Part shown: piece by piece, positions 56,328-57,752 of the stretch | Position numbering within the stretch: position 1 is the first letter of the stretch | Layout of the letters: each line of letters opens with the position of its first letter | DNA from: Escherichia coli | GTDB lineage: Bacteria > Pseudomonadota > Gammaproteobacteria > Enterobacterales > Enterobacteriaceae | Strand: one strand, 5' to 3' | Assembly: GCF_001677475.2 (NCBI RefSeq) | Contig: NZ_CP015229.1 | Length of the DNA stretch: 64,000 nt | Program-made: the position numbers and the translations under genes | Notes under the pieces: model-generated | Told to the model about the DNA's origin: nothing | Seen by the model: only the letters and a program-made list of their open reading frames with translations | Database searches by the model: none

Positions 56328-57752
56328 CTACGCAAGCTTTGGAAAGGTAGCAACTTTATCGCGCTGCTGGCTTTCCGCGCTTCGCGGAACTATCTGCTTT
56401 AGGTCGCTAATGAAGCACTCCTGCCAGTGGTTAATATCGTTTTTCACGATAACGTCCAGCATTTCTGCATGACGGGAAATACGTTCCGCCAGCGACATAG
56501 TCAATGCACGATCCAGCGCAGCTGCAACTTCGTCACGATCGTAGGGGTTAACAATTAACGCCGACGTTAACTCGTTTGCCGCTCCCGCAAATTGCGAAAG
56601 AACAAGAACGCCCGGATTGGCTGGGTCCTGAGCGGCAACATACTCTTTTGCCACCAGGTTCATCCCGTCACGCAGTGGCGTCACTAAGCCCACGTCAGAG
56701 TAGCGGAATATTTTCATCAGTAATTTACGGTCAAAATGCTGATTCAAATAATAAAGCGGCGTCCAGCCTAATTGCCCGTATTTACCATTAATTCGTCCAG
56801 CTTCATTTTCGAGCTGATGACGAATATCCTGATAGGCTTGCACATCACCACGCGACGTTGGTGCAATCTGGGTATAACGAATTTTACCATGATGCTGCGG
56901 ATATTTTTCCAGCAACGCTTCATAGGCGAGAAAACGCTCTGGCAAACCTTTGGAATAATCCAGCCGTTCGACAGAAAAGATATTTTGTACGTTTTTCAAT
57001 TCCGCTTTAAGTTGCGCCAGTTTTGGCGGCAGTGGCCCGGCAGCCTGTTTGGCTATTTCTTTTGGCTCAATGCCAATCGGGTAAACTTCTGTTCGAAACG
57101 CTTTGCCCCAGGCTGTATGGCTTTTTGCGCTACGTGTCGTGACGCGGGTCAGGTTAGAAAGGCAATCCAGGAACGCCAGACGATCGTTTTCTGTCTGGAA
57201 ACCCAGCAAATCATAATCACAAAGCTGTTCAAGCAAGGTGTCATATGTCGGCAGCGCGTTGAAGATTTCCGGTGTCGGGAAAGGAATATGCAGAAAGAAA
57301 CCAATGCGATTATTCACTCCCCGTTTGCGTAATTCATGCGCAAAGGGCAACAGGTGATAATCGTGGATCCAGATAATGTCATCGTCTTGCAACAGCGGCA
57401 GTAATTTATCTGCCAGCAACGCATTTACACGTAGATAGCCGTCCCAGGCAGGACGCTGAAATTGCACCAGATCGAGCCGATAATGAAAAGCGGGCCAGAG
57501 AACGGCATTGGAGAATTGGTTGTAGTATTCGTCAAGGTCCTGTTCGCTGAGGTTAAAAGAGGCCCACGTAATGTTACCCTTTTTCACCTTTTTTAGCGGC
57601 TGATCCTCATTCCCTGTTTCGCCACTCCAGCCAAACCACAGTCCACCTGCGGCTTTCAGTGCCCCCAGAATGCCAACGGCAAGGCCACCGGCACTGGCGG
57701 CGTGCTCATCTGGTGGTGCAATCCGGTTAGATACTACGACTAAACGACTCAT
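56328..57752 (-). CDS. otsA: Trehalose-6-phosphate synthase
   Basis: 474 aa from [16 protein letters not shown]20 family. Confidence 0.95.

Follow-up and report, generated by a model that had tools for sequence, protein, structure and literature searches.

Neighbouring genes overlap at several places within the 64,000-nucleotide (64-kb) stretch of Escherichia coli DNA analysed here (the window), and these overlaps are quite probably ordinary operon junctions, among which the 26-nt overlap of otsB and otsA is a conserved dual-coding junction with independent initiation at otsA rather than a device for coupling the translation of the two genes. The first-pass annotation had taken the overlaps to indicate translational coupling throughout the operons. 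This interpretation is plausible for the junctions at -4, -1 and -8, which are known coupled spacings, but it does not carry over to the 26-nt junction, where coupling in vivo is probably weak or absent. The overlap of otsB and otsA is most likely a tolerated and evolutionarily frozen result of an otsB stop codon that came to lie inside the constrained first codons of otsA.

The window is a segment of the E. coli chromosome that runs from yebY to ftnB, and megablast searches found it in essentially all 5,426 complete E. coli genomes, with best identities of 98-99.3%. Gene coordinates were transferred from three RefSeq E. coli annotations, and a gene-by-gene check found 61/61 genes intact, with start and stop codons as expected. 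The two genes of interest are on the minus strand: otsA (56328..57752) encodes a trehalose-6-phosphate synthase of 474 aa that belongs to GT20 (Pfam PF00982, E = 8e-156), and otsB (57727..58527) encodes a trehalose-6-phosphate phosphatase of 266 aa with a GTG start (PF02358, E = 4.5e-57). The presence of a GT20 synthase together with a HAD-type trehalose-phosphatase, and the gene order otsB-otsA, identify the locus as the otsBA operon for trehalose synthesis. OtsA of the window is identical at 474/474 positions to the E. coli K-12 protein in PDB entry 2wtx, and OtsB is likewise identical to the K-12 protein. The longest otsB reading frame begins with an ATG at 58584 (285 aa; 58525-58584 (-)), and the annotated start is the GTG at 58527 (266 aa), at which in-vitro start-site profiling by INRI-seq records a peak of 40-98 CPM (PMC9825163).

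Elsewhere in the window, yecT is absent, with only 52 nt (39443-39494) between the stop codons of argS and flhE; K-12 and strain EC1515 carry yecT between these two genes, in strain SCU-102 the gap is also 52 nt and likewise lacks an annotated yecT, and the gene would seem to be polymorphic for presence or absence among E. coli strains. The intergenic region of 780 nt between flhD and uspC (55113-55892) is free of insertion sequences, and K-12 MG1655 has IS1 (insA5/insB5) upstream of flhD. The torZ gene (32239-34668 (-)) is intact and encodes 809 aa; it is annotated as frameshifted in SCU-102, which is the best full-length match for window positions 25001-50000. Rfam matches above the gathering score correspond to known sRNAs, namely MicL inside cutC (36088-36395 (-)), the antisense SraC/RyeA and SdsR/RyeB (758-902 (+/-)), and C0465 between tar and cheW (49654-49731 (+)).

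The first-pass annotation had described a 26-bp overlap of otsB and otsA in different frames, and this is borne out by the coordinates and by RefSeq, where the same overlap is found in strain EC1515 and in K-12 MG1655 (b1897/b1896; otsA 1980188-1981612, otsB 1981587-1982387). The overlap occupies 57727..57752 on the minus strand and comprises otsA codons 1-9 (MSRLVVVSN) together with the last eight otsB codons and the stop (YESFSRSI*), the otsA ATG being located at 57752-57750 and the otsB TAA at 57729-57727, both on the minus strand. The otsB stop is contained within the motif TCTAAC (57727..57732 (-)), which represents the Ser8 and Asn9 codons of otsA, such that the T of TAA is the last letter of TCT (Ser8) and its two A's are the opening letters of AAC (Asn9). 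With regard to OtsB, the Pfam trehalose-phosphatase domain covers residues 18-231 of 266 and the overlap falls outside it, in the C-terminal tail; Salmonella OtsB (PDB 6upb) has the same YESFSRSI C-terminal end. With regard to OtsA, the deposited sequence of the E. coli entry 1gz5 starts at residue 2. The protein aligns with its Burkholderia homologues from residue 1, and residues 2-10 are conserved. In the OtsA structure Arg9 presumably touches the acceptor phosphate.

Upstream of otsA, a Shine-Dalgarno (SD) core AGGAG (57761..57765 (-); duplex -7.5 kcal/mol) is positioned 8 nt 5' of the ATG and is itself preceded by an A-rich stretch. This whole region lies inside otsB's 3' end, with AGGAG falling within otsB codons (N-R-S), and in this respect the check suggested by the first-pass annotation, for SD sequences embedded in the 3' ends of upstream genes, has a positive outcome for otsA. 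An in-frame GTG (-9) and ATG (-6) are also encountered 5' of the otsA start (57756..57761 (-)); they are too near the SD and would be minor or non-used alternative starts. The ATG at -6 arises as a by-product of the Asp-Gly/Asp-Asp codons of OtsB, and among the 78 species compared below an ATG occurs at this position in only 33/78 and a TAG in 4. As candidates for the true otsA start these codons were rejected on account of the SD spacing, the poor conservation and, for the -6 ATG, an INRI-seq signal in 1/5 replicates only (PMC9825163). A consensus scan of 56200-58800 for promoters and terminators gave five promoter-like sites versus 3.1±1.8 expected, none of them near the junction.

Among E. 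coli genomes the otsB/otsA overlap is fixed, as 5,361/5,417 of them match a 71-nt query across the junction at 99% identity or more. For a wider comparison, otsBA loci were taken from 80 species-level genomes of the Enterobacteriaceae and their relatives, 78 loci carried both genes, and the otsA start and otsB stop were located in each. The overlap is exactly 26 nt in 74/78 of these species, which are phylogenetically related, so that the counts are not independent. The otsA ATG is conserved in 78/78 and the otsB frame is open up to its stop in all; outside Escherichia the identity of OtsB is 53-78%, and 53-65% in most genera, yet the 26-nt register has been kept. The exceptions (4/78) are Yokenella, one MAG and two Pantoea-like genomes, where otsB ends at an ATGA shared with the start codon of otsA and the OtsB tail is 7-8 residues shorter, and thus a shorter OtsB tail is tolerated in four lineages. 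The part of the OtsB tail 5' of the overlap is variable in length and sequence. At the junction a stop is available in each off-frame (TGA within ATGA, TAA within TCTAAY), so that a change of frame in the variable Q/E-rich linker merely exchanges the two stops. An indel of 5 nt in this linker, about 35-40 nt 5' of the otsA ATG, distinguishes Mixta (L079/L080) from the Pantoea-like genomes (L081/L083), and it switches otsB between the TAA with the 26-nt overlap in the former and the TGA of ATGA with a 4-nt overlap in the latter. Among the loci collected, one labelled Chryseobacterium sp. 18061 (L010) has an otsBA of enterobacterial type (OtsA identity 86%), with a junction that hardly differs from the one in a Citrobacter sp. 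(L082) apparently from the same study, and the assembly is probably mislabelled or contaminated.

This pattern of conservation corresponds to the signatures expected of out-of-frame dual coding. Both frames are conserved in the 78 species, Pfam domains are recognized in both proteins, and structures have been solved for E. coli OtsA and Salmonella OtsB. At Ser8 of otsA, 74/74 species that have the 26-nt overlap use TCT, which accounts for 14% of the TCN codons elsewhere in the same genes; 2/4 of the species with the ATGA stop have TCG or TCA at Ser8. The synonymous T of this TCT is invariant because it forms part of the otsB stop. Among residues with more than one codon, the third-position entropy has a mean of 0.58 bits in the overlap versus 1.52 in codons 10-60 (Mann-Whitney P = 5e-4), a reduction in synonymous variation to which general constraints on codons at the 5' end may contribute.

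Evidence on initiation at otsA comes from the conservation of its ribosome-binding site (RBS) and from published profiling. An SD (AGGAG, GGGAG or GGGGA, at a spacing of 5-8 nt) precedes otsA in 78/78 species. INRI-seq (PMC9825163, Table S2) is a form of in-vitro start-site profiling in which each gene is present only as a fragment from -30 to +153, with no upstream translation, and the K-12 sequence assayed is the same as that of the window from -60 to +43 of otsA. On such a fragment without otsB translation the otsA start reaches 382-604 CPM, about ten-fold above the otsB GTG start, values that hold for short fragments in vitro, since in cells under stress the complete otsBA transcript could adopt another fold. 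In the accessible part of the table this is the second highest value among about 40 window genes listed. The otsA start is therefore strong and autonomous in vitro. The Ribo-RET signal at otsA in vivo is zero (PMC9825163), because otsBA is hardly expressed in exponential growth. With respect to RNA structure, the fold of the junction (57690-57830 (-)) is no more stable than that of shuffled sequences (z = 0.04), which leaves upstream ribosomes no hairpin to open, and a form of coupling that depends on the unfolding of a hidden otsA ribosome-binding site was rejected. The supplements of the TRAINSPOTTER N-terminomics work have no rows for otsA, otsB, motB, flhE or znuB, and contain flhA only; in the part of the listing available, the flhA entry is marked as an annotated start (dbTIS), names Ribo-RET (BL21) and INRI as sources and has the peptide string MSNLAAMLR.

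The remaining overlaps in the window are short. The 4-nt ATGA overlaps reported by the first-pass annotation are all present in the sequence, at znuC/znuB (21072..21075 (+)), yecD/yecE (29056..29059 (+)), cmoA/cmoB (31103..31106 (+)) and motA/motB (53167..53170 (-)), with znuC/znuB (at -4) and cmoA/cmoB also found in a published table of K-12 junctions (PMC10666635). The 8-nt overlap of flhB and flhA (ATGAGTAA, 41958..41965 (-)) is likewise present, both in the sequence and in RefSeq. For flhA/flhE (ATGATG, 39885..39890 (-)) an overlap does exist, but the 4 nt assigned to it require flhE to start at the first ATG, and RefSeq and the K-12 table (-1) employ the second ATG, which gives a 1-nt overlap of the form TGATG. 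The sequence alone is compatible with both starts. The N-terminus of FlhE is presumably removed along with a signal peptide. No INRI-seq peak was recorded at flhE (PMC9825163).

In each of the seven pairs the two genes are direct neighbours on the same strand, both in the window and in the three RefSeq annotations. When compared with the stop/start overlap motifs ATGA, TGATG/TAATG and NTGNNTRA (-4, -1 and -8), znuCB, yecDE, cmoAB and motAB correspond to -4, flhBA to -8, and flhAE to -1 or -4; otsB/otsA does not correspond to any of these, as its spacing is -26 and the otsB stop lies 23 nt 3' of the otsA start codon. The pairs znuCB, motAB and flhBA each encode subunits of one complex. Start-site profiling, which the first-pass annotation had named as a check, supports the annotated starts of otsA, znuB, cmoB, motB and flhA, each with an INRI-seq peak, and the values for the downstream genes of the short overlaps are 0 for yecE, 0 for flhE, 5.5-10.4 for motB, 23-45 for cmoB, 43-60 for znuB and 36-62 CPM for flhA (PMC9825163). 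This weak or missing autonomous initiation parallels the SD content of the genes, in that yecE and flhA have no SD and the SD of motB is only 3 nt from its start. The further proposal that the overlaps constrain the choice of start codons can be retained, as the overlaps are real, lie inside operons and fix the starts. One more overlap, absent from the first-pass annotation, involves the convergent genes exoX (+) and ptrB (-), whose stop codons share the palindromic TTAA (4437-4440), a tail-to-tail overlap of 4 nt. The cheA gene is a known tandem-start gene. Its RefSeq GTG start, that of the long form, is found 4 nt after the motB stop (52239-52244 (-)), and the K-12 pair table gives +295 for motB->cheA, presumably based on the internal short-form start.

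Of the co-directional neighbour pairs in the window 7/41 overlap and 4/41 are at exactly -4, far more than expected if spacing were uniform (P from 8e-6 to 8e-4), and the pattern is not due to chance. In the window 10/41 pairs (24%) fall at -8 to +6, and the available text of a K-12 survey gives 707/2,987 (24%) for all unidirectional pairs (PMC10666635); the share in the window is thus the K-12 genome average, and the pattern is the normal genome-wide one. The spacings -4, -1 and -8 are the three that are enriched in K-12, according to the accessible parts of two sources (PMC10666635, PMC12548453). Table S2 of Huber et al. 2023 (PMC10666635) lists every junction at the same distance, including "-26 otsB/otsA" and -1 for flhA/flhE. 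The overlaps are ordinary operon junctions that have already been annotated and tabulated for E. coli K-12, and as such they are already known.

Termination-reinitiation at such short spacings has been demonstrated in E. coli with reporter constructs (PMC6728339, PMC10666635), and the -4, -1 and -8 motifs have been described as both enriched and experimentally coupled (PMC6728339, PMC10666635, PMC12548453), to the extent that the available sections of these sources cover the matter; by analogy, coupling at the short overlaps of the window is plausible. None of znuCB, yecDE, cmoAB, motAB, flhAE and flhBA appears in the accessible parts of the coupling papers, and otsA and motA are not named in the text of the review (PMC12548453). 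The search of the literature yielded no paper on translational coupling of otsBA or on its start sites in vivo. It is unlikely that otsA is coupled to otsB, be it through post-termination ribosomes that slide back 23 nt or through elongating ribosomes that keep the otsA ribosome-binding site open. The two genes do share an operon and a strand, with the SD and ATG of otsA inside otsB, and in a set of 1,695 prokaryotic genomes OtsB->OtsA pairs are typically tightly spaced (median -1, q1 -13, q3 +34, n = 115), which suggests selection for proximity that could reflect some coupling. The otsBA genes of Acinetobacter baumannii overlap as well, by 13 nt (PMC13214290), and bidirectional scanning by post-termination 30S subunits is part of a published model, as outlined in the accessible text (PMC4538824). 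In the same text, however, the re-initiation coefficients have their optimum at -4 and drop beyond an overlap of about 10 nt, being 11.6-fold lower at 25 nt than at short spacing and at that length about 35-fold below the -4 optimum, figures that were obtained with synthetic reporters. The portion available of a 2025 review also gives no coupling at -25 (PMC12548453). Taken together with the conserved AGGAG, the strong INRI-seq initiation without otsB translation (PMC9825163) and the lack of an inhibitory structure to unfold (z = 0.04), these data argue against reading coupling from the 26-nt overlap.

That the overlap was selected for a function of its own is improbable. Such a function might consist of negative coupling, whereby ribosomes at the end of otsB block access to the otsA start and thereby fix the OtsA:OtsB ratio, or it might reside in a functional C-terminal peptide of OtsB (…YES[F/L]SRS[I/L]). 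The exact register in 74/78 species, the invariant TCT and the suppressed synonymous change are in keeping with this notion, as is the otsB GTG start that is weaker in vitro than that of otsA (40-98 vs 382-604 CPM; PMC9825163), and a proteome classification table shows fitted values for OtsA and zeros only for OtsB (Mori 2021, PMC8144880), a weak indication that is unusable as a ratio. Conservation of this kind is, however, largely explained by the constrained N-terminus of OtsA and the need for some stop codon; moreover, the four lineages that lack the last 7-8 residues argue against an essential role, and neither the length nor the sequence of the tail 5' of the overlap is constant. The narrower proposal that the exact 26-nt register is itself under selection, maybe as a ribosome-occlusion device that sets the OtsA:OtsB ratio under stress or on behalf of a functional OtsB tail peptide, must be regarded as a long shot. 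It is scarcely credible that the overlap is an artefact of annotation, with the true otsA start downstream or the true otsB stop upstream and no real overlap. Automatic start calls are often wrong and an in-frame GTG and ATG are found nearby, but these alternative starts of otsA lie upstream and would create a longer overlap rather than none. The ATG is present in 78/78 species with an SD at the right spacing, an INRI-seq peak coincides with the annotated otsA start (PMC9825163), the otsB frame is open up to its stop in all species, and the N-terminal evidence for OtsA (the conserved residues 2-10, the start of 1gz5 at residue 2 and the Burkholderia alignment from residue 1) points in the same direction.

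With independent initiation at otsA as the preferred explanation, the workings of the two kinds of junction may be pictured as follows. At the short overlaps (ATGA, TGATG, ATGNNTAA) a ribosome that ends the upstream gene could re-initiate on the next, which would likely be of greatest importance for downstream genes whose own ribosome-binding site is poor or missing (yecE, flhE and motB). At the 26-nt junction otsA would initiate de novo from its own AGGAG, at a spacing of 8 nt, and an ATG, set in an A-rich stretch inside the 3' tail of otsB, and a ribosome translating otsB would read through otsA codons 1-9 in the other frame and come to a halt at the TAA of TCT AAC. The overlapped part of OtsB would then add eight residues to a C-terminal tail that is variable and lies outside the phosphatase domain, and because of this location the cost to OtsB is probably small. 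Conversely, the N-terminus of OtsA (MSRLVVVSN) is highly conserved, which would freeze the sequence and with it the register.

These considerations call for caution in inferences that are based on annotation, as a gene overlap by itself is not evidence of translational coupling. Where an overlap of 26 nt comes with a strong internal ribosome-binding site, it is probably a sign of independent initiation, and it would be kept only by way of the constrained N-terminus of the downstream protein. The cross-species data on otsB/otsA also provide a small and tidy example of how an overlap may become frozen in evolution.

The closest known system is the otsBA operon of E. coli K-12 MG1655, which has the same genes in the same order, the same 26-nt overlap and identical proteins; its DNA differs from that of the window at 32 nucleotides over 2,200 nt, none of them at the junction, which is identical from -60 to +43. 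The six short pairs of the window carry the motifs of the coupled start/stop junctions (Huber et al. 2019, 2023; Brown and Wade 2025), and three code for subunits of a single complex, a typical trait of that class; otsB/otsA, at -26, lies outside it. A counterpart for the long overlap is provided by the synthetic bicistronic operons at -25 nt of Tian and Salis (2015), in which, too, about 25 nt overlap out of frame and the downstream gene begins within the upstream one, but which consist of reporter genes and designed sequences, in contrast to the native otsBA. In Acinetobacter baumannii otsB also precedes and overlaps otsA, but by 13 nt and not 26 (PMC13214290), which indicates that the 26-nt register is lineage-specific.
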